Positions 13,838 to 60,090 of a stretch of 64,000 nucleotides of DNA are shown piece after piece. Where the stretch lies: the NCBI GenBank assembly GCA_964621165.1, contig CAZULC010000001.1, positions 109,648 to 173,647 on the forward strand. The letters are read 5' to 3'. Origin of the DNA: an uncultured Ruminococcus sp. Its GTDB lineage: Bacteria; Bacillota; Clostridia; Oscillospirales; CAG-272. A model generated the notes under the pieces. That model searched no databases. It was not told the origin of the DNA and saw nothing but the letters and a program-made list of their open reading frames with translations. Both the position numbers and the translations under genes were made by a program. The first letter of the stretch is position 1, and every line of letters starts with the position of its first letter.

Positions 13838-13885
13838 TTAGTTTGAAGTTTTTGCCAAGCTTCTTCCAAGAAGCGTCCCGCATCC
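13838..13885 (+). repeat. Family-2 (F2) repeat, solo 3' module M5 (copy J) inside the phage module
   Basis: AGTTTGAAGTTTTTGCCAAGCTTCTTCCAAGAAGCGTCCCGCATCCCC aligns with the M5 consensus TTTTAAAGTTCTTGCACAGCTTCTTTCAAGAAGCGCG. Confidence 0.6.
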
Positions 13886-13909
13886 CCCGTACCCTCGTCC
13901 CCGTCTCCC

Positions 13910-14392
13910 CTACTTCTCGGGGGTGAAGACTGAGGTGGACTTTACGAACGTGCCGGGGATTACGTCGCTCACGGACTTCATGGAACCGGTGTAACAGAGC
14001 GCGTCACTGCCTTCGCCGCATTCGTCCGGTATGACCGAATATTCACGCTTTACCGCATGATATACACCGGACGTGTCCGTTTCGTCAAATAAGTCCACCG
14101 TGATTATCTCAACCCGGGCGCCTGACCCCGTCAGCTCACGGTCAGTTATATTCCGTATTTTGTCGATTACAGGATTGCCGGAGTAAACCTCAAACTCGTA
14201 GTCAATCACCGGCGCGTATCCCGTTACGTCAGTGCGCTTCGTCACCTCGTGTATGTACCGACGCTGATAACTGACCGCGTTTTTCGACTCCGTAAAGTCC
14301 GTGAACCCTTCCCCAATCAATGCCCAGACCGGTGACTCCATCGTTCCTACATTCATGTAATGCTGCCTGTCCGCACGCTTAACTATTGCCAT
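13910..14392 (-). CDS. Major tail protein
   Basis: 160 aa, MAIVKRADRQHYMNVGTMESPVWALIGEGFTDFTESKN.., upstream of the chaperones and TMP. GAAAGAGAGG RBS. Confidence 0.6.
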   Translation of the reverse strand: MAIVKRADRQHYMNVGTMESPVWALIGEGFTDFTESKNAVSYQRRYIHEVTKRTDVTGYAPVIDYEFEVYSGNPVIDKIRNITDRELTGSGARVEIITVDLFDETDTSGVYHAVKREYSVIPDECGEGSDALCYTGSMKSVSDVIPGTFVKSTSVFTPEK

Positions 14393-14466
14393 ATCTGTTT
14401 TCTGCCTCTCTTTCTATCTTTCTATCTTTTCTGTTTCATTGTAATCAATCCACCCCTTCGCAGGGC

Positions 14467-14850
14467 TTATCTCACGCGCATGCGCATCATGTACGACGCA
14501 CGGTATTCCTCCTCGCCGCTTTCGTATATCGCTGACTTCACCGCTCCTGATATAACGCGGAACTCGTAATCCCCGCCCGCATAATCACGCATAGCCAAAG
14601 CCGCACGACGGAAATATTCCCCCGCTCTCAGCCTGTCAGCAACCGCACGCCCCGGTACACGCACACGTATCTCAAACGGCACGTCAATAACACCAGTCCC
14701 GTCCACATATTCCTTCACCTGATTGAACGCTCCCGATATCCAGAGCGAACCAACCCCATCCCGCCAGCTCTCCGGTATAACCTCAACCCCTATCCCGTTG
14801 AGTATCCCTGAAATAACCTCGGCAAAATTTACTTCACATCCGTAAATCAT
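14467..14850 (-). CDS. Head-tail joining / minor-capsid-family protein
   Basis: 127 aa, between the connector genes and the major tail gene. Confidence 0.4.
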   Translation of the reverse strand: MIYGCEVNFAEVISGILNGIGVEVIPESWRDGVGSLWISGAFNQVKEYVDGTGVIDVPFEIRVRVPGRAVADRLRAGEYFRRAALAMRDYAGGDYEFRVISGAVKSAIYESGEEEYRASYMMRMRVR

Positions 14851-14869
14851 ATTAACTCTACTCTCACCC

Positions 14870-15203
14870 TCACTTCAGCATGGCGCCGATAACCGCCTCA
14901 GTCCACTGACCCATGCACTCGTCCTTCGCGGCTTCAAACCACCTCGCACATGCCCGGGGATGTACCTTTTTGTTGAAAGTACGGCTCGCATAATAACAGT
15001 CGTGTGCATAATCCGCCGCCCATATAACACGCCCGTCCCCTGCCGCACGACCGGATTTGCATAATCTTTCCGGTCCTGTATGGCACAAACGGCTCGCATG
15101 ATGACAATACCGCCTCCTCCAGTACCCGCGACGCGTCCCTCTGACGACTGCTTAACTTCTCAGCTAACCCGCCTGCGTCAACTTTAACATTGAATTTAAC
15201 CAA
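14870..15203 (-). pseudogene. Minor-capsid/head-tail connector gene split by a 1-nt frameshift
   Basis: Frame a: MVKFNVKVDAGG..EPFVPYRTGK. Frame b continues: LCKSGRAAGDGRVIWAADYAHDCYYASRTFNKKVHPRACARWFEAAKDE... The junction is in ACCGGAAAGATTATG (plus-strand coordinates ~15061-15074). Confidence 0.6.
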
Positions 15204-15249
15204 TCAACCACTTCCTTAACCAAAACAAAACCAAATCCCTTAACCATTC

Positions 15250-15600
15250 TCACTTGAGAACCAAACGCACATGGGATAATTCTCCCGCATCTTTGTAGTA
15301 TGACGCCTCGGCTACCCGGTACTCATGCCCGCCAATCACACATAAGTCTCCCTTGGCCGCATCGGGAAATTCCGCCTCAATGTAACCGCCGCCGGATACG
15401 CACTCCTCACATATGCTCATGGAGCAGAAGAAATATACCTTGATTCCTCCGACCTCACGCCAGTCCTCCTCGAGTATCCGCCGCCCGCCAATGAATACCC
15501 CCGATAAACGGTAGTCACGGTAAAGCGCACTCCATCCCTCGCCGTCTCCTATAAACCTGCGGTAAATAACCTCGGACTTCATAATCCCATCGTAACTCAA
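15250..15600 (-). CDS. Head-tail adaptor-position protein
   Basis: 116 aa with a TTG start in the ORF track. Called on position only. Confidence 0.35.
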   Translation of the reverse strand: MSYDGIMKSEVIYRRFIGDGEGWSALYRDYRLSGVFIGGRRILEEDWREVGGIKVYFFCSMSICEECVSGGGYIEAEFPDAAKGDLCVIGGHEYRVAEASYYKDAGELSHVRLVLK

Positions 15601-15665
15601 TAATCCACCCCCAGACTAACCCAAAACCCAAATTCCCGCCCTAAATCAACCTTCATTCAGGAACA

Positions 15666-15944
15666 TCAGACCCAGCGGCATAATAATCCCGCACTTCTCA
15701 AAACAGCCGCCGCGTCCGGTGAAATAACGCCGCCGCAGACCGATATCCCCTCGCTCACATCACGGTAAACCACACTCACATCCCCCGCCTGACGGGATTT
15801 CACGTCCCGTCCGCTTGATGAATAGGCCCGCTGTAGATCCACTGCATCGTTGAACGCCCGAATCTGTTCCTCATCCATGTCACACCCCCGAAACGGGTAA
15901 ATCAAAGATAGAAGCAATGCCTCCGCACTCCTGCCTTCATCCAT
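15666..15944 (-). CDS. Small head-tail connector-position protein
   Basis: 92 aa, GAGGTGA RBS, directly downstream of the capsid gene. Confidence 0.35.
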   Translation of the reverse strand: MDEGRSAEALLLSLIYPFRGCDMDEEQIRAFNDAVDLQRAYSSSGRDVKSRQAGDVSVVYRDVSEGISVCGGVISPDAAAVLRSAGLLCRWV

Positions 15945-16129
15945 AATATCACCTCGTCAAAACCAAATTTTACCAAAATTCAACCAAATCCAAACCAAAA
16001 TTAACCAAATTCCCGTCATGACTTCACCATAGCTCAACCAAAGCTTGACTAAACTCTGACCCGAGCCGTATCCCGCCCCTCTCCCGCCGAATTGTACCCC
16101 AGCCGTAAAGTCATGCCAGCTCAGCCAAA

Positions 16130-17221
16130 TCAGCCAAGATAACGGCAGGCCAGCTCGGGGTAAACCGTCTTGAAGGCGTAAAGTACATCCATGGAAAGTA
16201 TGTCGCGCTTGTACTTCATGTCGTACCCTCTCACAACCCGCAGGGAAATGCCGTTGTAGGTGGTAACATATGACTCAACACCGGCCGGAGCGGCAAGAGG
16301 TCGGGTGATAAAGGCAAACGCGTCCGGATGGAAAATCAGGTTCGCCGCATGGGACGGAAGCGCCGTAATCACACTGGATGATGTCAGATTGGGCTTGCCG
16401 CTCAGCTTCACCGTCATGTCCTCGCCGGATATCACAGCGTCCTCGAGCACCGCATATGAACCCGCACCCTCAACAGTAATAATGTCGCCCTTCTTCAGCC
16501 CTGAACCGGAATTTTTGAATACCGCAGTTCCCGTACCCGCGGAAGTTCCGACAAGAGTCAATGTGCCGCTTGAGCCGGAAACATGATCGCAGACCGCCTG
16601 GGACATGTAGTTGTCAATGCCGAAAATGCGCCCGATGGAACCGGTTCTCAACGCAGTGGTGGACCCGCACTTGTCTGCGTTCACTATGGCCGGAACCTGC
16701 TTCAGCTTCGCGGCAGCCATTGGATTCCAGACGGCGCAACGATATCCCGCAGGAACTTTCTGGTTGTCAAGCGCCAGAGCCGCCTCGGAAAGATCGTCAA
16801 GCCCGTCGGGAGTCACACCGGCCGTACCTGCGTATGTGGGAATGTCCTTGTATAGGGATAAACCCTCGCCGTTGATCTTTTCGGCTAAAGCGGCAGCCGC
16901 AGGCTCAATGAACATGCGCATGACCGAATCAAAGTCGCAGGCGGACTCAATGGCGCCAACCTGCATGTCAACAGTGGCAAGATGGTCAAGCTTCACGTCA
17001 ATGGTGTTGTTCTGTAAGGACTGAGCCTCAATGCCCACGGACTCGTCAAACTCCGACGCCATAAGCTTCACCGGACAACGAACGGAGACAACATCCCCCT
17101 GCTTGGCAGCAGAACCGGCGATGCTTTCCTTGTAGATAAGATTCGGGAAAACTAAATTGTCAATGAGACGGGGAAGAGCCTCACGGGCAATGCGCTTAAC
17201 AGAAATATCAAATTTTGCCAT
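16130..17221 (-). CDS. Major capsid protein (P22-coat-like family)
   Basis: 363 aa, MAKFDISVKRIAREALPRLIDNLVFPNLIYKE.., follows the scaffold gene. GAAAGGAAG RBS. Confidence 0.7.
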   Translation of the reverse strand: MAKFDISVKRIAREALPRLIDNLVFPNLIYKESIAGSAAKQGDVVSVRCPVKLMASEFDESVGIEAQSLQNNTIDVKLDHLATVDMQVGAIESACDFDSVMRMFIEPAAAALAEKINGEGLSLYKDIPTYAGTAGVTPDGLDDLSEAALALDNQKVPAGYRCAVWNPMAAAKLKQVPAIVNADKCGSTTALRTGSIGRIFGIDNYMSQAVCDHVSGSSGTLTLVGTSAGTGTAVFKNSGSGLKKGDIITVEGAGSYAVLEDAVISGEDMTVKLSGKPNLTSSSVITALPSHAANLIFHPDAFAFITRPLAAPAGVESYVTTYNGISLRVVRGYDMKYKRDILSMDVLYAFKTVYPELACRYLG

Positions 17222-17281
17222 AATTAAAACTTCCTTTCAAAAATAAATAAAATGTAGACAGATATCAACACTACTAAACTG

Positions 17282-17470
17282 AATGTTGTCAGCCCAAAAG
17301 TTATAATCAACCTTTTCCAAAAGTTTGTAGGGTTCAAAGGGACAAAGTCCCTTTGTCGACTTCCGCAGAAGTCTAAATGCCAAGACTCAATAAAGAGTTC
17401 CTCTTTTGGTTCTTTTCCTCCTCGATAAAGGAGAAAAGAACAACAAATCCCCACGCACTCCCTCCCCTTC
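17282..17470 (+). repeat. F1 repeat, copy 4 (full), between the scaffold and capsid genes
   Basis: All hairpin modules are present, plus the shared 3' tail AACAACAAATCCCCACGCACTCCCTCCCC. Confidence 0.9.
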
Positions 17471-17532
17471 ATAAACTTATCCCCCACCCCAACCACCCAG
17501 ATTCAATCATACCCCCACCTCCGTCACCTGCT

Positions 17533-18042
17533 TCATATCCGCTTGACTTTCCTGTAGTACTCACCGTCGTCCAGCGAGTCCGCGTCTGCTATACCATTGC
17601 CGTGATTTAGCCCGCTCGAAAATACTACTTCCTTCTCCTCAGCCCCACTGAATAAATATGGCGCTGACTTCTTTAACTCGGTAAACTGCTCAGCTAACCC
17701 ATAAACTCCGTCCTCGCTGACCGTTACCTTGCTCATGTCTATAACCTTCGATACAATCTCACGGCTCTTCGCACCTGATCTGTCAAGCTCCCGCTCAAGA
17801 GCAGCATTGCACCTGACCTCACGTAACTTCAGCTCGTACCTGCCTTCAACTTCGCCAACGTCGCCTACCCTGACACCCGCTTCGGCCGCTTTGATTAAAA
17901 ATTCGTCGTAGGTTATGCGCCCGTCACCAAAAATCCCGCCTATCACATCCGGCTCACTCGCGCCCTGTGACATACCAGCTTCAACAGTAACTCCACCCAT
18001 AGCTTCACCGATAGAACCAACATTGACTTCATCTTCATTCAT
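17533..18042 (-). CDS. Phage scaffolding protein
   Basis: 169 aa, acidic and helical-looking, between portal and capsid. GGAGGGG RBS. Confidence 0.55.
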   Translation of the reverse strand: MNEDEVNVGSIGEAMGGVTVEAGMSQGASEPDVIGGIFGDGRITYDEFLIKAAEAGVRVGDVGEVEGRYELKLREVRCNAALERELDRSGAKSREIVSKVIDMSKVTVSEDGVYGLAEQFTELKKSAPYLFSGAEEKEVVFSSGLNHGNGIADADSLDDGEYYRKVKRI

Positions 18043-19414
18043 TTATTACCCCTCCAATCCACTTCGAACGGAACTCGTCCACCGTCATAACCCCGGCCTC
18101 TACTTCGCCAAGATCGGCTAACCGCCGACTGTCCGCGTCACTGAAATATGAGTCGTCAAAACTCATCTGTATGTCCGCACCTTCGTCTATCGCTAATCCG
18201 TAATAGTGTGCGCCGCACCATAATAACGCACGCGCTATAGATATGATAAAACTCCGCGCATTCCGCTGGTGCTTCACTAAATTCTGCCGCATGTCCTGCC
18301 GCTCTCCCATGTACTGAGTCGCAGTCAGCTTCACACGACCGTCTGTGTCAAAGGTGTAGTGATGTACGCCAAGCCCGCACCGAAAGGCTAAATAACTTAA
18401 CTGCCACTGAACAGCCGCCGCATTGTCACTTACCCTCAGGGACGGATTGTGCTCCGTTATCATCGGATTGTCCGTAAAATCCCCGTCGCCTAAGGTCACA
18501 AATAACTGCTGAGCTACGTCGTCAGGCGTTATCACATTCCCAAAATCATCTCGCTGAAGTAGGGACTGACTTAAAAATACCTTCTTCCCACCAAGCTTTA
18601 TGTCCCGACAGAAATTGTTGAAGGCTAAGTCAACTCCCTTTAAACAGTCGATAGCGTCCGCAAATACCGATACTCCCATCCCCGGACCTAACTCGCTCTC
18701 GTAATTGCTCTGTATGTTGGGCGTCAGTATGGCAAAAAATGGGATCTCGGAACCGGTGCGCATTACATCGGGGACTCCATCCAACGGAACCCGCTCCAGC
18801 CCGGCTGAGACTAAGTCTTCCTCACCGGAAAAATCAATTGAACTCGTACCGACCACTCCCGACGGCTTGTAGAGACTGTTGCGAATAACATATTGCCCGC
18901 CTTCGAGAATGTGTTCCTCACAGTAGATGTAATCCTCGCCCCGTCGGGTGAACTCAGAAATAAACCGCGCCTCAACTATTTTGCCGTTCACTACGCTGAT
19001 CGGATGAATGTGTAACGCATCAACATACTCAAACCGTATCTTCGACTTGCCACTCGCCGCTATCCTGCCGCCTTTTAGGGTAAAATTTTCAAGCCTTAAT
19101 AGTATGGCTCCCGTACCAAGCGCAAAAACACGCTCAGTTAATGTGTTCGCATTGCCCCAAAAATCGCTTTCCTCAAATACGCGGGAAATAAAAGCCGCTC
19201 CTGAATCGTCGGATATGCTTAGGGAACAACGGTCGTTGAAGATAAGCGAAGCCCAGTCCTCGCAGATTTTCTTCGCCATGTTCATGCGGTAAAGATCACG
19301 ACGGATCACACCACTGCCGCAGATGCTCTCATGGAACCGGTGGAAGGATGGATCAAACCCGCGCCACCATGAATCCCAGTATTTGATTAAATCACTACTC
19401 AAAATTACCTCCAT
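18035..19414 (-). CDS. Portal protein (SPP1 Gp6-like size and position)
   Basis: 459 aa, immediately downstream of the large terminase. Confidence 0.7.
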   Translation of the reverse strand: MEVILSSDLIKYWDSWWRGFDPSFHRFHESICGSGVIRRDLYRMNMAKKICEDWASLIFNDRCSLSISDDSGAAFISRVFEESDFWGNANTLTERVFALGTGAILLRLENFTLKGGRIAASGKSKIRFEYVDALHIHPISVVNGKIVEARFISEFTRRGEDYIYCEEHILEGGQYVIRNSLYKPSGVVGTSSIDFSGEEDLVSAGLERVPLDGVPDVMRTGSEIPFFAILTPNIQSNYESELGPGMGVSVFADAIDCLKGVDLAFNNFCRDIKLGGKKVFLSQSLLQRDDFGNVITPDDVAQQLFVTLGDGDFTDNPMITEHNPSLRVSDNAAAVQWQLSYLAFRCGLGVHHYTFDTDGRVKLTATQYMGERQDMRQNLVKHQRNARSFIISIARALLWCGAHYYGLAIDEGADIQMSFDDSYFSDADSRRLADLGEVEAGVMTVDEFRSKWIGGVINE

Positions 19415-19420
19415 AAATTA

Positions 19421-19611
19421 TGTAGAAGAATCTCCCCACCCTTAAACAAAACGTTGTCAGCCCAAAAGTTTGTAGGGTTCAAAGAGATGACGTCCCTTGT
19501 CGACTTCCGCAGAAGTCGAAATCCCCCAAGACTTCCAAAGAGTTCCTCTTTTGGTTCTTTGCTCCTCGATAAAGGAGAAAAGAACAACGAAATCCCCGCA
19601 CTCCCTCCCCC
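19421..19611 (+). repeat. F1 repeat, copy 5 (full), between the terL and portal genes
   Basis: GTAGAAGAATCTCCCCACCCTTAAACAAAACGTTGTCAGCCCAAAAGTTTGTAGGG...GGAGAAAAGAACAACGAAATCCCCGCACTCCCTCCCCC. Confidence 0.9.
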
Positions 19612-19653
19612 TTCACCAGTTCCATAAAGGCGCCCCCACCCATCCCCCTTTTT

Positions 19654-20961
19654 TCACCCCATGTACCGCTCAATCGAATACTCCATGGCGTCAAGAATAT
19701 CAATATCGCTCGTGAAATTGTCAAGCCGCTTGTCGCCTGAGGCTGACTCGTCCCATAAGGCACTGCTTAACCCGCTGATTAACTCCGTACACCCGCTTGA
19801 TACATGAAACCGACCTTGGGCCATAAGCTGATTCACAAAACTGATGCGGTCAACTATCGGCTTCTTTATGCTGTCAAGTACCTGTATCACCTCGCCATAA
19901 CGGCGTAAATGCTTCCGTAACCCGCTGATTAAATACTGCGCCTCGTTGTCCGCAAATATGTACCGGATATTCACCCCAGGGTAACTCCGCCGTAAATCAT
20001 GTATGAACTCAACCACGGCTCCGTTTATCCGCTCGGGATCTATCTCACCTTTCTCTCCGCTTACTATGCTCTCCCTGAGTATCACAAACTCAAGCTGACC
20101 GCATACCCGACGTATCCCTGTTCCGACTATCGCTGTCTTCGACCTGTTCCCGCCAAAGTCTATCCCTATGATGATAAAATCTACCCGACCTGCTTCATCT
20201 GCCGTAAATTCAGCCGGACTGTCCGCAAACCGCCGGTATATTATCCCCTCGGCCGCACATCGCTCTCCTAAAATGTCTCGCCGGTACCATATGGAACCTT
20301 TGTCGTACTGCGCCTCTATCTCGCTGAGCCGCTCTTCACTGATCACCGGATTGTCGTATATCGTGAAATGACCGTAGTTGTAAAATCCGTCCCCGACTTC
20401 TCCCTGCTCTGCCATCTCACGGTACCTGTCAATGTGATCTCTGTATATCGCGGCTTTCGGCGTGGATGGATTCAAATCCCAGAATATCCGCCGATCACGG
20501 GCCGCCAATGTCCGGTTCAACGCCTCTTCAATGAAATTTGACGCATGTAGATTTATCTCCGTGGCTATCCACATGCCGTAGGAATTTCCCCGAATGCGCT
20601 TGTATGAATCGGAATTCTTGCCGCCTGCAAATATAATGTGCTTCTCCCCCGCCGCAGTCTTCACACACATGGAATCGTTGCCGCGGTACTTCTCCCACTT
20701 GAACCGCCCCGCAAATATCCGCTCAAGCCCTAATCCGTTGCAGTCGCCTATGTTTATCTTCGCGTTGCCAAGAGTAGAGCCGGTAGCAAGATGTATCCTG
20801 TCCGGTGACTTCTCAAGCAGGGACGCAAATACAAATACATTGTCTATGGTCTTGCCCGCCCGGACGGCTCCCTCGGCTACGTTTATAACCGATGTGTACG
20901 CCCGCGCCATGTATTTCCTGTGCTTGATTCCAAAATTGTAGTCCAAACCATCATCTCCCAT
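19654..20961 (-). CDS. Terminase large subunit (PBSX/XtmB-type)
   Basis: 435 aa. Walker A in VAEGAVRAGKTID. The C-terminal half is nuclease-like. Confidence 0.85.
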   Translation of the reverse strand: MGDDGLDYNFGIKHRKYMARAYTSVINVAEGAVRAGKTIDNVFVFASLLEKSPDRIHLATGSTLGNAKINIGDCNGLGLERIFAGRFKWEKYRGNDSMCVKTAAGEKHIIFAGGKNSDSYKRIRGNSYGMWIATEINLHASNFIEEALNRTLAARDRRIFWDLNPSTPKAAIYRDHIDRYREMAEQGEVGDGFYNYGHFTIYDNPVISEERLSEIEAQYDKGSIWYRRDILGERCAAEGIIYRRFADSPAEFTADEAGRVDFIIIGIDFGGNRSKTAIVGTGIRRVCGQLEFVILRESIVSGEKGEIDPERINGAVVEFIHDLRRSYPGVNIRYIFADNEAQYLISGLRKHLRRYGEVIQVLDSIKKPIVDRISFVNQLMAQGRFHVSSGCTELISGLSSALWDESASGDKRLDNFTSDIDILDAMEYSIERYMG

Positions 20962-22569: not shown

Positions 22570-22850
22570 CCCCACTAAGTAACTCCATAACGCAATCGAG
22601 ATCCGGCGTAGGCAGGCAAGGGTCGGAAGCTGTGCACCGGAGATAGCAAGCTATCTCCAACAAGGCGGTCCCTGACTGCCGTATTAAATTCCTCCTGATC
22701 CCTTGGTATTCAAAATTCAATCCGTACTTCTCCCTACTCAGCTGCAGAATAGGAGAAAGGAAGCACGCCCTATTCAGCTTCACACCAAAAGACCCAGTTT
22801 AAAAGTTCTTGCTCAGCTTATTTCAAGAAGCGCGTTCTCTTTAACTCACC
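22570..22850 (+). repeat. F2 modular repeat, copy A (modules M2-M5, no M1)
   Basis: GGCAGGCAAGGGTCGGAAGCTGTGCACCGGAGATAGCAAGCTATCTCCAACAAGGCGGTCCCTGACTGCCGTATTAAATTCCTCCTGATCCCTTGGTATTC...TTTAAAAGTTCTTGCTCAGCTTATTTCAAGAAGCGCG. Confidence 0.9.
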
Positions 22851-23747
22851 CCTTCGGTATCTCTCAACTTCTTCGCGCACTTCTCCTCTCTCCTTGAGAA
22901 TGTTGTAAACGCAAACCCCGCCTATAACTATGAACGCACCAATGATCGCCATCACGCCTATGCTTTCGTGAATTATAACCGCAGCTAAAATCGGATTTAA
23001 TACCGGCTCAATCATGGAAATCAAAGACGCAGTAAGCGGCGCTACCGAATTCAAGCCGTCCGCTATGCAGATGTAGGCTAAACCAAATTGAATAAAACCT
23101 ATCAGTAACACACCAACTATCACTTTTGCCGAAAAATCAACCTCGCCTGCCATAAACGGTAGCCCGATAACCGCGCCAAATACGCAGCCTATCAACACCG
23201 ACGATAACGAATCCGAACCCGGGAACTTCTTCATCATGAATACAAACGAATACGCTACCCCAGATATTATCGCTATAATGTTCCCAGCTATTCCGCCTCC
23301 CGAAAGACTGTCTATGAAAAATAATACTACCCCAAATAAAATAATAAATACAGCTCCCCCGTCAAGCTTCGTCGGCTTCTCCTTGAATATAAGCCACATG
23401 AATAATATGATAAATATCGGCGCCGTGTATTGTAATACTATCGCGTTCGCAGCTGTCGTCAACCGGTTCGCTAATATGTATAGTAACCCCTGTAACGTCA
23501 TCGCTAACCCGCAGAATACCGTGCTTTTGTCTATCACTATCCTGTGCCGCCGTATCTTCATGTATGTGAATATCTCCACAGCCGCAAGTAACGAACGCGC
23601 TCCGCATAACGACATCACTCCCCACGGCACCGACTTCACAAGAACCCCGCCTAACGAAAAACATACCGCCGATATTACAAAAAAACCAACCCCAATCCCG
23701 TGGCCTTTTGCTCCTTTTTCCTTTTCCTTTTCCGTATCCATATTCAT
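22818..23747 (-). CDS. EamA/DMT-family transporter
   Basis: 309 aa, about 10 hydrophobic segments in two similar halves. The last ~10 codons and the stop lie inside F2 copy A. Confidence 0.7.
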   Translation of the reverse strand: MNMDTEKEKEKGAKGHGIGVGFFVISAVCFSLGGVLVKSVPWGVMSLCGARSLLAAVEIFTYMKIRRHRIVIDKSTVFCGLAMTLQGLLYILANRLTTAANAIVLQYTAPIFIILFMWLIFKEKPTKLDGGAVFIILFGVVLFFIDSLSGGGIAGNIIAIISGVAYSFVFMMKKFPGSDSLSSVLIGCVFGAVIGLPFMAGEVDFSAKVIVGVLLIGFIQFGLAYICIADGLNSVAPLTASLISMIEPVLNPILAAVIIHESIGVMAIIGAFIVIGGVCVYNILKERGEVREEVERYRRGELKRTRFLK

Positions 23748-24597: not shown

Positions 24598-24712
24598 CAG
24601 TGGTGGGTAAGTGGGGAAGCCCACACGGGCAGTCACGGCACATCTTCAGCTGAAATTTATACAGCTTCCACGACGACCGAACCCAAGCTCCCGCGGCAGC
24701 ACAGCCACCCAC
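24598..24712 (+). repeat. Family-3 (F3) repeat, copy a
   Basis: GTGGGGAAGCCCACACGGGCAGTCACGGCACATCTTCAGCTGAAA..TTCCACGACG..GCTCCCGCGGCAG. Confidence 0.8.
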
Positions 24713-30248: not shown

Positions 30249-30251
30249 ATA

Positions 30252-47820: not shown

Positions 47821-47849
47821 TAAAATACCTGCTATAATGTAATATAAAG

Positions 47850-48605: not shown

Positions 48606-48635
48606 CCCCTTGAACTGGCTCCAATCCCCAAGGCT

Positions 48636-49337
48636 TCACCGGCTGGGGATAATAGGCATACCGCCGTTTACGTTCGTTATTTCAGCTACAAGAAGGGCGG
48701 CTTTCGCACTCATCTGCTGAACTAACATGGGACAGTTTTTCTTGAATTCGTCAGCCACATCAATGGTGCGCCAGTCGATTTCGTTTTTCGTGCCGGGATT
48801 GAAGACAAGCATTACCGCAAAGGAAACCGATAATACAAAGGGTCCTTCCGGATCAAAACGGAGAGTGCGGTTGTAGGTCACTTTCACTCCTGCCTGAGGT
48901 ATAACCTGAGCTACAATCGTGTCTTTCACACCAAGCTTGAACTGACCCTGACCCTGCGCCGGACGAGTGGTCTCGTAACTCACGTTCTCAAGCATGATCC
49001 TCCGCTCAGCCAAAAAGTACCGGTTGAACTCAAACCCCTCGGGAGTAACATACTTCGGCCGTTTTAACTGTATCTCGCCCCCCTGTCCAGCCTGACTTCC
49101 CTGTCCGACGGAAGCTTCACCTGAATCGCCGGAATCACCAGCACCGGCCGCACCGCTTTCTCCTTCTGTCGGAATAAAATGCTCGCCTGATGACTCCTTT
49201 GAATCCTTCGACTCCTTTGCTCCCTCTTCCATAGCCGCAGAAGCCGAAGAAGCCGCTGAGCCGGTCACTTTTTCATTCTCTTCCCTCTTGTCGTTCTTCT
49301 CGTTCTTGTCACTGCTTTTCTTTCCAAATAATGGCAT
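48636..49337 (-). CDS. Hypothetical protein: low-complexity N-terminal half and a structured C-terminal ~140 aa (weak SecB-like resemblance)
   Basis: 233 aa. N-terminal K/E/S/G-rich region. The C-terminal ..FEFNRYFLAERRIMLENVSYE..FAVMLVF..NCPMLVQQMSAKAALLVAEIT.. is only impressionistically SecB-like. Confidence 0.35.
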   Translation of the reverse strand: MPLFGKKSSDKNEKNDKREENEKVTGSAASSASAAMEEGAKESKDSKESSGEHFIPTEGESGAAGAGDSGDSGEASVGQGSQAGQGGEIQLKRPKYVTPEGFEFNRYFLAERRIMLENVSYETTRPAQGQGQFKLGVKDTIVAQVIPQAGVKVTYNRTLRFDPEGPFVLSVSFAVMLVFNPGTKNEIDWRTIDVADEFKKNCPMLVQQMSAKAALLVAEITNVNGGMPIIPSR

Positions 49338-51233: not shown

Positions 51234-51465
51234 CCCCACCCCACTGCGGGAGCAAAAGAATCGTCACCGTGGGACCGCTCCCCTACTCAGCTCAATAAAT
51301 GCCGAACTTGCCCGTGGGGGCTTCCCCACCCCACTGCGGGAGCAAAAGAATCGTCACCGCGGGACCGCTCTCCTACTCAGCTCAAGAAATGCCGAGCTTG
51401 CCCGTGGGGGCTTCCCCACCCCACTGCGGGAGCAAAAGAATCGTCACCGTGGGACCGCTCTCCTG
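51234..51465 (-). repeat. F3 repeat, locus c: tandem array, 90-bp period, about 2.6 units
   Basis: CCCCACCCCACTGCGGGAGCAAAAGAATCGTCACCGTGGGACCGCTC..CTACTCAGCTCAA.AAATGCCGA.CTTGCCCGTGGGGGCTT starts at 51234, 51324 and 51414. Confidence 0.95.
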
Positions 51466-51499
51466 TTAAGTAAACGCTGATTTAAGGTTAAAATCGCCT

Positions 51500-51538
51500 A
51501 AAATCGCCATATATTCGAGCATTTTCGGCGATTTTTTC
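51500..51538. terminator. Hairpin with flanking T/A runs downstream of rlmH (possible terminator), nested inside a 15-bp inverted repeat
   Basis: AAAATCGCC (51500-51508) pairs with GGCGATTTT (51527-51535). The loop is 18 nt. The outer inverted repeat is at 51466-51480 / 51546-51560. Confidence 0.35.
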
Positions 51539-55162: not shown

Positions 55163-55280
55163 GGCTTTCCCACCACTGCGGGAACTGTAGTGTAGACTGG
55201 TTAACAATCTCCGGTCATCGTGGGATCTCCTCCTAATCAGCTGAAAAAACGCCGTATATGCCCGCGGGGGCTTCCCCGCC
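55163..55280 (-). repeat. F3 repeat, copy d (inverted orientation)
   Basis: Reverse complement reads GGGGAAGCCCCCGCGGGCATATACGGCG..TCAGCTGATTAGGAGGAGATCCCACGATG...GTTCCCGCAGTGGTGGG. Confidence 0.85.
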
Positions 55281-56189: not shown

Positions 56190-56250
56190 TCGGGAAGCCC
56201 CGACAGGCTGTCTCGGCATAACTCCAGCTGAATAGGAAAGACATCCCACA
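56190..56250 (+). repeat. F3 repeat, copy e (5' two-thirds)
   Basis: CGGGAAGCCCCGACAGGCTGTCTCGGCATAACTCCAGCTGAATAGGAAAGACATCCCACAAC. Confidence 0.75.
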
Positions 56251-56280
56251 ACAATAAAATTTCCTAACTCCATATAAAGC

Positions 56281-56375
56281 GATCACTCCCCTCCTGATTT
56301 TCTCCACCTGCTCAGCTTCACCCCATTGCGACATCTTTTTAAAGTTCTTGCACAGCTTCTTTCAAGAAGCGCATC
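56281..56375 (+). repeat. F2 repeat, copy G (M3 remnant, M4 tail, M5)
   Basis: CCTCCTGAT..CTGCTCAGCTTCACCCCATTGCGACATCTTTTTAAAGTTCTTGCACAGCTTCTTTCAAGAAGCGC. Confidence 0.8.
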
Positions 56376-56452
56376 ACTCATCGCTCCACTACTTAAACTC
56401 ATCAAATCACTGTCTCCCAAATCACTATAAAAAACGAAAGGCCATAACACAT

Positions 56453-57652: not shown

Positions 57653-57775
57653 CGGGGAAGGTGGGGAAGCCCCCACGGGCAAACTCCGGCACTTTTTCAG
57701 CTAAGTAGGTTCTCAATCCCACGGTTCTATAGAATAGCTGCCGCAACAGGGAAGCCCACGGTATTCTCCACGGCT
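57652..57775 (+). repeat. F3 repeat, locus f (one unit plus a partial second unit), starting at the dapL stop
   Basis: GGTGGGGAAGCCCCCACGGGCAAACTCCGGCACTTTTTCAGCTAAGTAGG..TCCCACGG..GCTGCCGCAACAGGGAAGCCCACGG. Confidence 0.85.
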
Positions 57776-57804
57776 CAACCGAAATCGCAAGTGTCCGAAA
57801 GGCA

Positions 57805-58095
57805 GTATCACTCCACCATTAAGAAACGTCATCCCGCAATCTGAATCCGGCGTGTGCGGGCAGGGGTCGGGAGCTGTGTACCGGAGATAGCTAGCTATCT
57901 CCAACAAGGCGGTCCCTGACTGCCGTCTCAACTACTCCTGATCCCTTGAACCAACTAACCCGCTGGTAGATTTGCACCTGCTTTGCCCAAAGAATAGCTC
58001 GGAGTGAGCATTTTCTGCTAAGCTGAACCAAAAAAAGAATGGGTTTTAAAGTTCCTGCACAGCTTCTTTCAAGAAGCGCGTTTCTCCTTACCCCA
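57805..58095 (+). repeat. F2 repeat, copy H (M2-M5)
   Basis: CATCCCGCAATCTGAATCCGGCGTGTGCGGGCAGGGGTCGGGAGCTGTGTACCGGAGATAGCTAGCTATCTCC...GTTTTAAAGTTCCTGCACAGCTTCTTTCAAGAAGCGCG. Confidence 0.9.
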
Positions 58096-58131
58096 CCTTT
58101 GCACTAACTTAACTTTTTTTCCACCACCCCA

Positions 58132-58160
58132 TTGACAAATCCGCTTTCTCGCTGTATAAT
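58132..58160 (+). promoter_or_regulatory. Sigma-A type promoter of pyrG
   Basis: TTGACA, 17 nt spacer, TATAAT. Confidence 0.6.
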
Positions 58161-58178
58161 ATAATAAACAAGGATGTT

Positions 58179-58235
58179 TGCCAGCCGCTGGAGTGCGGTT
58201 TTGTCAGGCACCCTTTTTTATTTTTTGTTTTTTAA
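58179..58235 (+). promoter_or_regulatory. pyrG leader hairpin plus long T tract (candidate attenuator)
   Basis: TGCC/GGCA and CCGC/GCGG pairings (58179-58210), followed by CCCTTTTTTATTTTTTGTTTTTT, then AAGGAG and the ATG at 58247. Confidence 0.35.
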
Positions 58236-58246
58236 GGAGTATCATC

Positions 58247-59863
58247 ATGCCAACTAAATATATCTTCGTAACCGGCGGAGTCGTGTCCGGTCTCGGGAAA
58301 GGTATCACCGCCGCTTCTCTCGGCAGACTGCTTAAGGCAAGAGGTCTTAAGGTCGCAGCTCAAAAACTCGACCCCTATATTAACGTGGACCCAGGAACTA
58401 TGTCTCCGTACCAGCATGGGGAAGTGTTCGTCACCGAAGATGGAGCCGAAACTGACCTCGACCTCGGCCACTACGAACGCTTCATCGACGAAAACCTCAA
58501 TAAATTCTCTAACCTAACCTCCGGTAAAGTCTATTGGAACGTGCTTAACCGCGAAAGACGGGGCGATTACCTCGGCCAAACCGTGCAGGTTATACCTCAT
58601 ATCACCGGAGAGATCAAAAACTTCATATACTCCGTTGCCGAAAAAACCGCCGCTGACGTCGTAATCACAGAAATCGGCGGAACTACAGGCGATATCGAAT
58701 CCCAGCCCTTCCTCGAAGCTATACGACAGGTATCACTCGAAGTCGGACGCGAAAACTCACTCTTCATCCACGTCACTCTCGTGCCTTACCTCTCCGGCTC
58801 CAATGAACATAAAACCAAACCTACACAACACTCCGTCAAGGAACTCCAAGGGATGGGGATCACACCAAATATCATTGTCCTTAGATGCGATCGCCATCTT
58901 GAACCCGCTATATTTAAAAAAATCGCTCTATTCTGTAATACTAAACCCGACTGCGTTGTGGAAAATATGACCGTTCCCGAACTCTATGAGGCTCCCGTCA
59001 TGCTCGAAAGAAGTAACTTCTCAGGAATCGTCTGCCGTGAATTAAATATCAACGCGCCTCAGCCCGACCTCTCCGATTGGAACGCTATGCTCGATAAAAT
59101 CAAATCCCGTAATAAAGATGTAACAATTGCTCTCGTAGGTAAATATACCTCACTCCATGACGCTTACCTGTCTGTCGCCGAATCCCTCCGCCACGCCGGC
59201 TATTATAATTCCGCCGTGGTCCATATCGATTGGATTGACTCAGAAAAAATCACTCCTGATAACGTCAAATCTGTGCTTCAAAACGTCGACGGCATCATTG
59301 TCCCCGGAGGCTTCGGAAGCCGCGGTATTGATGGTATGATTATAACGGCGGACTATTGTAGAAGAAACGACATCCCCTACCTCGGTATCTGCCTCGGAAT
59401 GCAAACCGCTGTCATCTCCTTCGCAAGAAACGTATGCGGCCTGCCCGACGCTGACTCAGGCGAATTTAACCCCGACTCAAATAATAAAGTCATTGATTTT
59501 CTCCCCGACCAGTCCGATGACGTTAAAAAAGGCGGTACCCTCCGGCTCGGCGCTTACCCCTGCGTACTCGATGAAAATAGTAAAATCCATGAATGCTATA
59601 ATAAAACCCAAATCTCCGAACGCCACCGCCATAGATATGAATTCAATAACGACTATAGAGATGTATTGCAGTCCCACGGTCTGTCCCTCGCAGGTAAATC
59701 CCCCGATAACCATATAGTGGAAACCGTGGAAATTCCCGGCCACCCCTTTTATATAGGAGTCCAGTTCCATCCCGAATTCAAAAGCCGCCCCAATAACCCC
59801 CACCCCCTCTTCATGGGCCTAGTAAAATCCGCCCTTGAATATAAAGAAAAAAATCAGCAATAA
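58247..59863 (+). CDS. pyrG: CTP synthase
   Basis: [26 protein letters not shown]... GATase region GICLGMQ and HRHRYE. Confidence 0.95.
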
Positions 59864-59872
59864 TAAGATGTA

Positions 59873-60090
59873 CTCCACCCCCCAGCACAAACACTCGCGC
59901 TGATATAACTGCTGTAATATGCACGTGATCACTGCTTCATCCCGCAATTTGAAACCGGCGTGGGCAGGCAGGGGTCGGAAGCTGTGCATCGGAGATAGCA
60001 AGCTGTCTCCAACAAGGCGGTCCCTGACTGCAGCCTTTTTTAAAGTTCTTGCACAGCTTCTTTCAAGAAGCGCGTTCTCCTTTTCACTCC
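59873..60090 (+). repeat. F2 repeat, copy I (M1, M2, M5; M3-M4 deleted)
   Basis: CTCCACCCCCCAGCACAAACACTCGCGCTGATATAACTGCTGTA...GGAGATAGCAAGCTGTCTCC..CCCTGACTGCAGCC joins directly to TTTTTTAAAGTTCTTGCACAGCTTCTTTCAAGAAGCGCG. Confidence 0.9.

Follow-up and report, generated by a model that had tools for sequence, protein, structure and literature searches.

The 64,000-nucleotide stretch of DNA from an uncultured gut Clostridia member analysed here (the window) carries ten intergenic sequences, designated F2, in which the same parts recur in changing combinations. This locus raises the question of whether these sequences form a single family and, if so, what its conserved parts might do.

Identification and Module Composition of the F2 Repeats

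A BLAST census, in which the full copies C (38590-38960) and F (48260-48620) were used as queries against the window, recovered all ten loci listed by a preceding sequence-only reading, spanning 13842 to 60102 and having a common collinear non-coding sequence of up to ~340 bp. Copies C and F are 84.6% identical over 337 nt (E = 3e-89), and the E values of the remaining copies lie between 1e-60 and 1e-6. Aligning all ten loci revealed a constant order and orientation of modules in every copy, and F2 is confirmed as a genuine family of non-coding, modular, mosaic intergenic repeats built from a fixed-order series of short modules, M0 to M6. As that reading had noted, nine of the ten copies lie on the plus strand, with copy E being the sole minus copy, no terminal inverted repeats were found when checked, and there is no ORF, none longer than 41 aa being present within copy F; the Rfam search that it proposed gave no match of F2 to any described family. 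Altogether, 39% of the intergenic DNA of the window is repeat.

The module contents that it gave for copies A, B, D, E, H, I and J proved right. Copy F (48271-48611, plus strand) is full length with a C-rich tail to 48611, and its modules are located at 48262-48274 (M0), 48275-48343 (M1), 48344-48438 (M2), 48439-48469 (M3), 48470-48553 (M4) and 48554-48589 (M5). The full-length copy C (38601-38946, plus; M1-M5) is flanked by the terminator hairpin (38557-38588) of the plus-strand gene 37640-38548 and by the stop of the minus-strand gene 38967-41276. Copy B (35558-35975, plus) is a tandem of a truncated copy (35558-35626; M1 and the first ~20 nt of M2) followed by a full copy (35631-35975; M0-M1-M2-M3-M4-M5), the BLAST matches of the two covering 35568-35626 and 35631-35971. 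The tandem abuts the ruvX stop (35559) on its 5' side, and 18 nt separate its 3' end from the earliest potential start codon (TTG, 35993) of a pepC-like ORF. Copies A (22585-22854, plus, with an M6 extension to ~22900) and H (57829-58105, plus, with a partial M3 and the M5 box mutated to TTCCT) retain short remnants of the M1 start (CTCCCCCACTAAG, CACTCCACCATTAAG) followed by M2-M3-M4-M5; the antisense strand of M5/M6 in copy A provides the stop and the final ~26 codons of an EamA-family ORF (22818-23747, minus), and copy H is preceded by the stop of an aminotransferase gene (57652) and followed by the pyrG promoter, a consensus one (58132-58160). In copy D (45521-45750, plus), which lacks M2, M1 is directly joined to M3, followed by M4 and M5, and the copy has the terminator of parE (45788-45768, minus) on one side and a promoter-like site of an SLH-protein gene (45393-45365) on the other. 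Copy I (59864-60102, plus) follows the pyrG stop (59863) directly and consists of M1-M2 joined at ACTGC to M5, with no M3-M4, the consensus promoter of the next gene being at 60214-60243. Copy E (47881-48010, minus), head-to-head with copy F at a distance of ~260 nt, has M1 joined at CTGCT to the M4 end, then M5. Copy G (56282-56399, plus), between the dapF stop (56179) and an aminotransferase start (ATG 56454), had been read as M3'-M5; it is in fact the M1 start TTTTCTCCAC joined to the M4 end CTGCTCAGCTTCACC, then M5, the part of it matched by BLAST being 56302-56399. Copy J (13842-13902, plus) is M5 alone, of a divergent subtype (box TTTTT, arms CTTCTT/AAGAAG) with a C-rich, GTCCC-type tail resembling that in other species, and it is located 35 nt from the stop of ORF 13910-14392 (minus) within a phage-like gene cluster.

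Reconstruction of the junctions, also proposed by the sequence-only reading, placed those of copy I (ACTGC/AGC, M2 end to M4 end), copy E (CTGCT) and copy G (CTCCAC/CTGCTC) at microhomologies of 5-6 nt, as expected of deletions. The copies were thinned by internal deletion at such microhomologies, and partial tandem duplication occurred as well. For M2, the apical hairpin GGAGATAG/CTATCTCC of the stem drawn in that reading was predicted in five of the six folded copies (in a 6-pair version in copy F), and the long outer stem, present in some folds, is weakly supported; the fold z-scores of M2 are modest (-1.1 to -2.4).

M5 is the Only Deeply Conserved Module

That reading, which is partly supported overall, had identified a real mosaic and treated its modules as equivalent, but M5 is independent of the others and far more widespread. 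M1-M4 were not found elsewhere among the 174 fetched loci searched, with the M4 end (CTCCCCTRCTCAGCT) being common to F2 and F3, a third family of the window, and the M2 stem base (CAGGG...GGCGGTCCCTG) also occurring in the repeat of another species at a similar distance from M5 (131-133 nt, and 140-147 nt in five F2 copies). M5 was detected without M1-M4 at 52 loci in the genomes of about 16 other Clostridia species, where it always forms the 3' terminus of a different repeat specific to the lineage. Metagenome contigs from many habitats abound in a T-rich variant, and M5 or M5-like hairpins are also carried by F1, the other repeat family of the window. M5 is the only deeply conserved module of F2; in two orthologous pheS leaders it is nearly identical, and the neighbouring spacer has diverged.

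Geometry of M5

The conserved M5 string had been noticed from the letters alone, and what was missed is its box/arm/arm symmetry, the geometry of a triple helix. The layout is 5'-AAAG-[pyrimidine box]-G-linker-[pyrimidine 5' arm]-xC-[purine 3' arm]. In copy F, the core (48563-48586, plus) comprises the box TTCTT (48563-48567), the linker GCACAGC (48568-48574), the 5' arm TTCTT (48575-48579), the loop TC and the purine arm AAGAA (48582-48586); further cores of this kind start at 35927, 38898, 45702, 56345 and 60046, all on the plus strand. Across 258 modules, the box that follows AAAG mirrors the 5' arm of the hairpin and is complementary, in parallel orientation, to the purine arm on the 3' side, and its C position and T-run length follow those of the arm. 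These modules fall into 22 classes, and the seven asymmetric ones, such as TCTTTT with AGAAAA, TTCTTT with AAGAAA and TTTTTC with AAAAAG, match in the parallel register only, none matching in the antiparallel. Among the 66 unique modules not forced by the search patterns, 61 show the parallel match, compared with a mean of 33 and a maximum of 42 in 2000 box permutations, and T-runs of 4, 5, 6 and 7 match A-runs of the same lengths. Perfect class IV (pyrimidine-motif) arrangements number six on the plus strand of the window and none on the minus, with 0.27 expected, and the 3' module of F1 carries nine consecutive triads (TCCTCTTTT with AGGAGAAAA). The relation of box, mirror and arm is maintained through three-way covariation across many variants, whose classes are not phylogenetically independent; perhaps three to four independent events underlie the covariation of the C position.

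Box and arms are arranged as in an intrastrand triplex, of class IV when read on one strand and of class II on the other, and M5 is inferred to form such a structure. Several observations weigh against it. The canonical M5 gives five triads, below the 6-nt minimum of ITxF, and one of them is a C+.G-C that needs protonation on the pyrimidine strand. Variants like AAAGTTTTTTG-CTTCTTTTTT-tc-AAAAAAGAAG have a 1-nt linker and four outer base pairs beyond the triads, so the full hairpin and the triplex are mutually exclusive there. The hairpin alone is of unremarkable stability in ViennaRNA, which cannot model triplexes, and a simple triplex does not account for the conservation of AAAG, of the G that follows the box or of the C in the loop.

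Position Relative to Genes

F2 is located in spacers that contain a gene 3' end: repeats cover 47% of such spacers in the window and ~4% of divergent ones. The fully flanked M5 sites of other species (n = 45) comprise 17 convergent, 24 tandem and four divergent spacers. The gene on the 3' side of M5 is convergent at 38 of the 61 sites with a called downstream gene, its stop usually lying within a few tens of nucleotides, and no orientation preference of M5 relative to genes was observed. The downstream genes are unrelated housekeeping genes, including pheS, thrS, der, hisA, ilvN, hrcA, pyrG, pepC and a tRNA. M5-like modules are distributed 12:1 in favour of the plus strand in this one window, where the GC skew is uniform; crude proxies show no such bias in other species.

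Proposed Mode of Action and Alternative Explanations

The favoured reading, with a probability of about one half, is that F2 is a lineage-specific interspersed repeat of the BIME/BOX kind, anchored on a triplex-forming M5 and acting at the DNA level. The upstream box would add a third strand to the hairpin by Hoogsteen pairing with its purine arm, giving a class IV triplex on the M5 strand and a purine-motif (class II) triplex on the opposite one, an object of the same type as the E. coli BoxC/PIT/TMECO motif. Such a structure may arise in single-stranded or torsionally stressed DNA during replication or transcription, where it could be both an obstacle to polymerases and a recombination-prone site, which would also account for the surrounding mosaic of deletions and duplications; M1-M4 would be lineage-specific passengers attached 5' of the anchor. 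Action in DNA appears most likely from the lack of orientation preference, from stem mismatches of G.T and A.C in a ratio of 25:26, from the 12:1 strand excess under uniform skew and from the place of copy D between a terminator and the next promoter. Intergenic intrastrand triplex repeats have been linked to genome instability (PMC4666352), but a beneficial function would explain the strong conservation of orthologous sites better than a destabilising role does, and some termite-gut-type contigs, in which M5 immediately precedes a canonical terminator, hint at a role in RNA.

That F2 and the repeats related to it belong to the non-autonomous transposable elements of the MITE, PATE or REPIN sort, with M5 as an end structure read in single-stranded DNA by a transposase encoded elsewhere, e.g. 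an IS200/IS605- or RAYT-type HUH/Y1 enzyme, and the mosaic as decay plus nested insertion, is a real though minor possibility. Many copies per genome, contigs of the MAG JBJFHS breaking within the repeat, inverted head-to-head pairs (E/F in the window, and the loci L016 and L045), the overwriting of the EamA 3' end by copy A, the position of M5 at one end of differing lineage-specific units and a strand bias as single-strand transposition predicts are all consistent with it; the want of terminal inverted repeats and target site duplications is shared with IS200/IS605 derivatives, and the conserved AAAG 5' of the hairpin we take to resemble guide or tag tetranucleotides. Against it, the window contains no transposase or recombinase ORF, no recurrent ORF was found beside the motif (52 + 120 loci), no conserved target sequence was seen in the flanks and viral contigs gave no match. 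Moreover, an M5-type hairpin occurs at a single end, M1 having none comparable, orthologous copies are near-identical and retained across species, and a mirror repeat is not a requirement of any known transposase. Action as RNA is unlikely: here the AAAG-sense transcript would form a U.A-U/C+.G-C triple-helix hairpin in 3' UTRs or intercistronic spacers that blocks 3' exonucleases, aids termination or insulates neighbours, M1-M4 being further structured 3' UTR RNA. Class IV triplexes can form in RNA (PMC4666352), copies H and I lie past stop codons and ahead of perfect sigma-70 promoters, and canonical terminators are few in the window, being present at two of the 11 gene ends that have F2 behind them. 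The junction of copy I brings a short G+C-rich hairpin from the 3' end of M2 (60017-60031) in front of a T6 run (AGCCTTTTTT), terminator-like by scan, which resembles a pyrG terminator; at one locus (L019), M5 lies within the pheS leader downstream of a T-box and so would be transcribed in sense; several metagenome contigs have the motif directly before a hairpin and U-run; and M2 and M5 of the window copies share 11 nt of perfect complementarity with wobble-type substitutions. At the 38 convergent sites, however, M5 is antisense to the 3'-side gene, whose mRNA would carry the purine version, which forms no RNA triplex (PMC4666352). G.U pairs are not in excess over A.C, whole-element folds are no more stable than shuffles (z = -0.65 and -1.17), copy D lies beyond a strong terminator and Rfam offers no match.

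A protein-binding operator or promoter element of three TTCTT half-sites, with the F2 copies as shared regulatory regions of a regulon, is very improbable. The near-perfect 7+7 palindrome with a 2-bp centre, the third half-site one helical turn upstream, the frequent location 45-70 nt upstream of start codons and the high conservation of orthologous sites would suit it. The downstream genes, on the other hand, are functionally unrelated, ~60% of M5 sites face a stop codon rather than a start, pyrG and the gene next to it each possess a consensus promoter on the downstream side of M5, and inspection revealed no consistent -35/-10 spacing in either orientation; the T-run length of box and arms (4 to 7) and the outer stem vary within one genome, which a sequence-specific protein would not tolerate. 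Hardly credible is the view that no element exists and the modules are independent short repeats sharing repeat-rich spacers by chance, an outcome for which the sequence-only reading had allowed. M5 alone in copy J and in other species, the M4 end in F3, M5-like hairpins in F1 and the high repeat content of the spacers speak for it, but it is contradicted by the same order and orientation at ten loci, the collinearity of C and F, the microhomologies within the full-length sequence at short-copy junctions and the conserved M2-M5 distance.

Comparison with Known Systems

As in the ENE and MALAT1 RNA triple helices, a U-rich strand of M5 would clamp an A-rich strand Watson-Crick paired to a second U-rich strand, with one C+.G-C among U.A-U triples and a 3' end location. 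Those helices are eukaryotic or viral, and their U-rich strands are both sides of an internal loop capturing a 3' A-tract, whereas M5 would be a fold-back 'paperclip', antisense to the adjacent gene as often as sense. Like MITEs (Correia/NEMIS, ERIC, RUP), IS200/IS605-derived PATEs and REPINs, F2 is small, non-coding, dispersed and hairpin-forming, can overlap gene ends (copy A) and occurs as inverted doublets; unlike MITEs it has neither terminal inverted repeats nor target site duplications, unlike PATEs its hairpin is at one end only, and no cognate transposase was found in the 64-kb window. The likeness to BOX of Streptococcus pneumoniae (boxA-boxB-boxC) drawn in the sequence-only reading is apt as a description, F2 being a mosaic of the BOX/BIME type: it is modular, intergenic, ORF-free and in a Firmicute, and its copies keep the modules in one order and differ in which of them they contain and how often. 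In BOX, the two ends, boxA and boxC, show partial complementarity, and boxB is repeated in tandem; the ends of F2 are not complementary, none of its modules is reiterated except in one tandem partial duplication, and we know of no sequence relationship between the two. With the enterobacterial REP/BIME (bacterial interspersed mosaic elements), F2 shares extragenic palindromic units joined with other short motifs into mosaic clusters, found after gene 3' ends or between operon genes and rarely in divergent promoter spacers. It differs in lacking the GTAG tag, in that no RAYT was seen, in having all modules co-oriented instead of alternating inverted REPs, in the mirror-repeat third strand of its conserved unit and in its longer (about 340 bp), collinear full form.

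The closest parallel to M5 is the intrastrand triplex motif of E. coli (BoxC/PIT element/TMECO; Hoyne and Maher, 2000; Holder et al., 2015, PMC4666352). Both are short, highly conserved, multi-copy and strictly intergenic, occur singly and as inverted pairs, consist of three consecutive tracts obeying triplex pairing rules on a single strand, and are flanked by functionally unrelated genes with no transposase association; the M5 complement, made of a pyrimidine arm, a purine arm and a third strand of purines, likewise belongs to class II. The two have no sequence similarity, TMECO (CCCTCNCCC-N3-6-GGGNGAGGG-N3-GGGNGAGGG) being G/C-rich with nine triads and M5 being A/T-rich with one C/G and five to seven triads; conserved in M5 are further AAAG, the C of the loop and a G behind the box. 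It is also the terminal module of longer mosaic repeats and shows three-way covariation over many variants and habitats, of which we found no report for TMECO. Whereas TMECO is found in Proteobacteria or Cyanobacteria, M5 occurs in Clostridia and other phyla, and a triplex-type hairpin recurs in many bacteria beyond the uncultured gut Clostridia host of F2.

Module Composition of the F2 Family

BLAST of both full-length copies (C and F) against the window recovered exactly the ten loci of the mosaic intergenic repeat F2 (about 340 bp, copies A to J) listed in the sequence-only reading, and placed nine copies on the plus strand and one, copy E, on the minus strand, as had been claimed. The two full copies share 84.6% identity over 337 nt (E = 3e-89), and independent repeat finding in the window yields the same families. 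In the MAFFT alignment, the modules present keep one order and orientation in every copy. The module lists proposed earlier held for nine copies, whereas copy G proved to be the start of M1 fused to the end of M4 and followed by M5. The refined map begins with M0 (CCACGTCCTGC), which is present in F, E and B2, the full copy that follows the truncated B1 at locus B, and continues with M1 (TTCTCCAC...GCGCTGATATAACTGCTGTA...ACGTGATCACTGC), M2, M3 and M4, of which the first part is variable and the end is conserved (CCCTGCTCAGCTTCA). M5 is followed directly by a C-rich tail and then by M6 (CACTC..GTATCTCCAA..CTTCTT), which is present in A, B and I. The consensus of M5, the conserved 3′ module, is AAAG-TTCTT-G-C-NN-A-GCTTCTT-tC-AAGAAGC, comprising AAAG, a pyrimidine box, a linker, a pyrimidine 5′ arm, a loop and a purine 3′ arm; its single-string form is AAAGTTCTTGCNNAGCTTCTTTCAAGAAGC and its full sequence is AAAGTTCTTGCACAGCTTCTTTCAAGAAGCG.

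In agreement with the earlier description, no ORF above 41 aa was found inside F and no terminal inverted repeats were found in C or F; duplicated flanks around the F2 copies were also absent in the alignment. The long M2 stem drawn previously was retained in part, with the apical hairpin GGAGATAG/CTATCTCC predicted in five of the six folded copies (a 6-pair version in F) and the long outer stem predicted only sometimes. The fold energies of M2 are just 1–2.4 sd below those of shuffles, and whole-element folds of F2 are not significant on either strand. No Rfam family fits F2, whether in the window at gathering threshold or in E-value scans of 45.4–48.7 kb and 26 other loci, and even at E values as high as 10 the stretch 45400–48700 gave no relevant match. 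Overall, the observation of a modular family was borne out, and its interpretation is supported in part.

Genomic Setting and the F1 and F3 Families

The host of the window is an uncultured member of the Clostridia/Eubacteriales, and the genes of the window, which has a G+C content of about 50%, include those for SLH-domain proteins, a CsaB-GT4 fusion, ParE/GyrB, PepC, PyrG, DapF and pyruvate kinase. Rfam 15 at gathering threshold returned 0 matches over the whole window, and ARAGORN found no tRNA or tmRNA in it. A strong, uniform and negative GC skew was observed on the plus strand (−0.1 to −0.35 per 2 kb, positions 1–64000), which looks replication-linked and not transcription-linked because it persists where genes run on the plus strand. 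A siphovirus-like cluster of tail, capsid and packaging genes occupies 7673–20961 on the minus strand, with Gp37-like and Dit-like tail proteins, Gp15, a P22-type coat, a scaffold, an SPP1-type portal and a large terminase. Host-type repeats are located between these phage-like genes (F1 at 17252–17447 and 19420–19608, F2 copy J at 13842–13902), suggesting that the cluster is an ancient or domesticated prophage or else a unit of the GTA type. Positions 1–4422, which harbor a DEAD-box helicase fragment, a BREX BrxC/BrxD ATPase (736–2103, E = 2e-145) and a TerB_N-domain protein (2254–4422), are likely a defence-island fragment, and its spacers hold F1 repeats.

Like F2, the F1 family is a mosaic whose module content varies between copies, and it lies entirely on the plus strand, at 514–593, 2152–2227, 7177–7370, 17252–17447, 19420–19608, 28040–28146, 30250–30438 and 32010–32182. 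It forms a chain of hairpins, consisting of an M5-like AAAGTT-box hairpin, GGGGACAAAGTCCC, CGACTTCCGCAGAAGTCG and a 3′ module. Its start has the design of M5 with another stem (AAAG-TTTT-GAT-CAAACTTTT-cc-AAAAGTTTG, and AAGCCTTT/AAAGGCTT in another copy), and its CGACTTCCGCAGAAGTCG hairpin shows the compensatory variants CGACGACC/GTCGCCG and CGAATTCC/GAATTCG. The F3 family contains three tandem 90-mers at 51234–51503, with single copies in both orientations at 24614–24675, 37396–37542, 55230–55280, 56192–56253 and 57655–57720. The string CTCCCCTRCTCAGCT is common to F3 and the end of F2 M4, suggesting that the families exchange or share sub-modules.

On a simple ORF map of the window, the three repeat families cover 47% of the spacers with a gene 3′ end (tandem or convergent) versus about 4% of the divergent spacers. 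Copies H and I have an upstream stop codon on one side and, on the other, perfect consensus sigma-70 promoters (TTGACA-17/18-TATAAT) at 58132–58246 and 60214–60308. The former is the pyrG promoter and is followed by an attenuator-like leader with a hairpin and a T-run, which we take to resemble the pyrG attenuator of other Firmicutes. Copy D is flanked by the parE terminator and by the next promoter-like site. Few of the window genes are followed by a canonical terminator, and only 2 of the 11 gene ends preceding F2 have one; in copy I, right after pyrG, a short G+C-rich hairpin (the 3′ end of M2) before a T6 run was flagged as terminator-like by the scan.

The M5 Module in Other Species

The scan for the M5 core in one genome per species detected 52 loci from about 16 MAG species of uncultured gut Clostridia, none of which comes from the window's own genome. 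The match is limited to M5 (30–60 nt), M1–M4 being absent at these loci, and at all of them M5 is the 3′ end of differing lineage-specific repeats. In the MAG JBJFHS (Eubacteriales PUUB42_bin.021), M5 ends a unit of about 240 nt with about 14 copies, which forms head-to-head inverted pairs of about 650 nt (L016, 2950–3600; L045, 4900–5550). Most other copies of this unit are <400 nt from a contig end, so that the repeat fragments the assembly; in practice, such repeats break up MAG assemblies, one MAG having contigs that terminate within them. M5 is preceded by a GTGAAATTGAAG...hairpin unit in JAZQGP and by a GACTTGCACAAAC unit in UMGS1696/CAKRZR, and several species carry a short form composed of the mini-hairpin GGC-GACA-GCC, M5 and GACCGTACC. 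The JBJFHS units contain GCAGGGT..GGCGGTCCCTGC at 131–133 nt upstream of M5, which is the motif of the M2 3′ arm in the window (140–147 nt upstream of M5), and some copies have an extra apical hairpin there, like the window M2. Given this common motif, spacing and apical hairpin, the base of M2 may be homologous across species. The M2 core was not found in the metagenome scan.

The 45 fully flanked M5 sites comprise 17 convergent, 24 tandem and four divergent ones. The 3′ side of M5 is mostly about 20–60 nt from a convergent stop or about 40–70 nt upstream of a start, and the downstream genes are unrelated housekeeping genes. In two species, the short form lies between a T-box leader and the start of pheS (L019, 6581–7068, T-box at 90.8 bits in Rfam; L048, about 3880–4341), where M5 is nearly identical in both and as conserved as the T-box; divergence and an indel are seen in the spacer immediately upstream. 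Rfam matches in the other loci were to T-boxes and tRNAs alone, M5 was not found in the viral scan, and literature searches with sequence strings gave no relevant match.

About 30 non-canonical variants were obtained from the fetched loci by a scan for AAAG, a pyrimidine box and a palindrome, and a loose-pattern metagenome scan yielded at least 120 contigs from very different samples by name, human gut included. Among the contigs listed, nearly all are of the T-type (AAAGTTTTTG...CTTTTT-tc-AAAAAG...), with outer stems that vary freely and keep their complementarity. A two-hairpin unit, an M5-like T-type hairpin and then a G-rich hairpin, recurs in L064, L090, L115, L121, L141, L148 and similar metagenome loci. 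The G-rich hairpin co-varies (GGGGAC/GTCCCC, GAGGGC/GCCCTC, GGGGC/GCCCC) and often has GGTCTT or a U-run completing a canonical terminator behind it; this layout is that of the start of F1. The T-type motif was also observed as tail-to-tail inverted pairs of about 75 nt (AAAGTTTTTGCTTCTTTTTTCAAAAAGAAG...CTTCTTTTTTGAAAAAAGAAGCAAAAACTTT; L061, L067, L074, L113, L120, L125, L163 and L173), which look like miniature palindromic elements.

Triplex Geometry of M5

When the purine 3′ arm of M5 is read outward from the loop, the box equals its complement and not its reverse complement. Boxes of 4, 5, 6 and 7 T pair with runs of 4, 5, 6 and 7 A, and further box/arm pairs are TTCTT/AAGAA, TTCTTT/AAGAAA, TTCTTTT/AAGAAAA, TCTTTT/AGAAAA, TCTTTTT/AGAAAAA and TTTTTC/AAAAAG. 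The parallel register is matched by 250 of the 258 strict modules, in 22 variant classes that are not independent lineages; seven asymmetric classes (22 modules) match in parallel only, with none matching in antiparallel, and five modules match neither register. When only the 66 unique modules that the search patterns did not constrain are counted, 61 match in parallel, versus a mean of 33 and a maximum of 42 in 2000 permutations of the boxes, and 58 also have box and arm of equal length (mean 22.5, maximum 30). An antiparallel helix between the box and the 3′ arm, as an RNA switch, fits the symmetric variants and fails every asymmetric one. Covariation within the M5 hairpin itself is uninformative among pattern-selected copies because the search pattern fixed the stem.

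A pyrimidine-motif triple helix has its third strand parallel to the purine strand and contains T.A-T and C+.G-C triads. As the box mirrors the Watson-Crick pyrimidine arm, M5 has the arrangement that such a helix requires. To our knowledge, replication-based processes yield direct or inverted repeats and not mirror repeats, and we know of no requirement, apart from a triple-helix-type constraint, for a third strand to track the purine arm in parallel register. Three-way covariation supplies comparative support for the triplex geometry. The same symmetry is found in an unrelated sequence, TCTTTC..CTTTCT..AGAAAG (L022, L003), which co-varies to TCTTTT..TTTTCT..AGAAAA in L012.

An intrastrand triplex is defined by three consecutive tracts on one strand, of which the second must be able to pair with the purine tract as its reverse complement and the first or third must obey Hoogsteen or reverse-Hoogsteen pairing. 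M5 follows this rule as class IV, with its complement as class II. In the Hoyne/Maher classification, class IV reads 5′-Hoogsteen Y, Watson-Crick Y, R-3′, and its complement, class II, is of the purine motif (PMC4666352). ITxF requires 6 or more triads in the stem, tolerating one mismatch once there are 7, together with loops of 1–6 nt (PMC4666352). Canonical M5 stays below this threshold with its 5 triads and, with two outer G-C pairs counted, a first loop of 7 nt; the variants TTCTTT, TCTTTT, T6 and T7 have 6–7 triads. An ITxF-like scan of the window revealed 6 perfect 5-triad class IV motifs, all on the plus strand, versus 0.27 expected. In the F1 3′ module (AAAGAG-TTCCTCTTTT-GG-TTCTTTGCTCCT-CGATAA-AGGAGAAAAGAAC), the box TCCTCTTTT mirrors the arm over nine consecutive triplex-type triads, and three of its copies pass at n = 7 with ≤1 mismatch versus 0 expected, only with loops of 7–8 nt allowed (the F1 scan accepted loops up to 8 nt).

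Neither the conserved AAAG nor the loop C nor the G that follows the box is explained by a simple triplex; when box and purine arm are set in parallel, the G that precedes the box lines up with the loop C, and the one that follows it lines up with the G closing the purine run. Some variants of the T-type have a gap of one nt between box and 5′ arm, yet possess four outer base pairs outside the triads, so that the full hairpin and the triplex cannot coexist there. Alternatively, the mirror repeat of box and 5′ arm might form H-DNA in duplex. With a probability of about 0.4, we suggest that selection in many bacterial phyla maintains modules of the M5 type (AAAG, Y-box, G, xC-loop hairpin) as natural intramolecular triple helices, with box, 5′ arm and 3′ arm co-varying at each position; these would act genome-structurally at gene ends, for example as replication or transcription barriers or recombination sites, with mosaics like F2 growing around them. 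If true, M5 would be the first triplex motif backed by cross-phylum three-way covariation, beyond pattern matching alone. Interspersed repeats (REP, BIME, BOX, BoxC) are common in bacteria and poorly understood, and evidence for a role of intrastrand triplexes in vivo is thin; the comparative data go beyond pattern searches in that the third strand tracks the purine arm across dozens of variants. Confirmation would provide a widespread natural triplex motif open to testing, a handle on the placement of repeats at gene ends and, in structure-induced replication slippage, a plausible cause of deletion/duplication mosaics.

Level of Action and Origin of the Mosaic

One main rival of action at the DNA level, an RNA 3′-end element, finds support in the sense-oriented M5 of the pheS leader, in the arrangement of motif and terminator in some metagenome contigs, and in 11 nt of the M2 internal loop (GAAGCTGTGCA) that are perfectly complementary to the linker and 5′ arm of M5 (TGCACAGCTTC) in copies C, F and I (38712–38722/38902–38912, 48384–48394/48567–48577 and 59984–59994/60050–60060, respectively). 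This complementarity, which shows wobble-type changes in B and H and is absent in the other species, could be a long-range pairing or equally the remnant of an M5 fragment lying inverted within M2. Action at the DNA level is favored by the orientation of M5, which is indifferent to genes and antisense to the 3′-side gene at most sites, so that the mRNA of that gene would carry the purine version, which forms no RNA triplexes (PMC4666352). Copy D is outside predicted transcripts, and stem mismatches show no excess of G.U over A.C (25:26); an early lean to the AAAG-sense strand by wobble pairs vanished in this larger set. M5-like modules also lie 12:1 on the plus strand of a window with uniform GC skew, so that the class II version falls on the G-rich strand, presumably the template for lagging-strand synthesis. 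In the other-species loci, M5 orientation correlated with neither gene strand nor local GC skew, and no replication-strand bias was detectable by these proxies. A promoter reading of M5 (TTGAAA-N17/18-TTAAAA or TTTCAA-N17-NAYACA) was rejected, as neither the spacing nor the −10 box is consistent from one subfamily to another, and real consensus promoters lie downstream.

Judged by their junctions, the short F2 copies look like deletion derivatives. In copy I, the junction runs from the M2 end ...CTGACTGC into ...AGC-TTTTTT; copy F carries ACTGC twice, at the ends of M2 and M4 (TAACTGCAGCATC); copy E is joined at CTGCT, found in M1 (AACTGCTG) and at the M4 end (CCCTGCTC); and copy G joins TTCTCCAC to CTGCTCAG at CTCC(A/C)C. 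No clear microhomology was seen where ACGTGA meets GTATTA in copy D, and locus B consists of M1 plus 20 nt of M2 and then a complete copy. Structure formed in the DNA at gene ends would promote stalling and slippage, a mechanism that we infer at about even odds. The other main rival is a trans-mobilised element. Copy A overruns an EamA-family ORF (22818–23747, minus strand), whose last ~26 codons and stop are antisense M6/M5 (reading ...ERGEVREEVERYRRGELKRTRFLK and stop) and whose Pfam domain ends at residue 281 of 309. Pfam searches of 50 window ORFs detected no transposase, integrase or recombinase, and ORF clustering found no recurrent family around the motif. No same-species DNA was obtained for empty and filled F2 sites, the window pyrG protein being on no other record, and the closest pyrG relatives (L053, L054) have neither synteny with the window nor F2.

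Comparison with Known Repeat Systems

The architecture of F2 resembles that of BIMEs, and its earlier likening to pneumococcal BOX (boxA-boxB(n)-boxC) is, as we take it, one of architecture alone. F2 shares with REP/BIME the extragenic position at gene 3′ ends and the imperfect palindrome (20–40 bp in REP/BIME, stems of 7–17 bp here). However, the REP tag GTAG (or CGTC) 5′ of the palindrome is replaced in M5 by AAAG and then a pyrimidine box; no Y1 transposase occurs within the window, unlike the cognate RAYT flanked by REPs; and the F2 modules are co-oriented with one head-to-head pair (E/F), in contrast to the alternating REP clusters with short linker motifs in BIMEs. The TIR and target-site duplication of MITEs are absent from F2. 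PATEs, which derive from IS200/IS605, carry a subterminal hairpin at each end, both on one strand, and a conserved sequence of four or five nucleotides at the left junction, and their host genomes encode TnpA or TnpB. F2 has a hairpin at the M5 end only, its left flank is not conserved in the alignment, and no transposase was found within the 64-kb window.

The nearest described object is BoxC/PIT/TMECO of E. coli, an intrastrand triplex motif that is conserved, present in multiple copies and confined to intergenic DNA, and that shows neither a strand bias nor an association with gene function; it sometimes occurs in inverted pairs, its folding has been demonstrated in vitro, and statistics link it to genome rearrangement (PMC4666352). 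From its sequence, M5 would be of the same kind but not of the same family, as the TMECO consensus CCCTCNCCC-N3-6-GGGNGAGGG-N3-GGGNGAGGG bears no resemblance to M5. The two differ in sequence, composition, length and host range, and M5 anchors longer mosaics. F2 represents a new mosaic repeat family that is restricted to its lineage and whose general kind is known, and M5 belongs to a widespread and apparently undescribed family of triplex-geometry hairpins.
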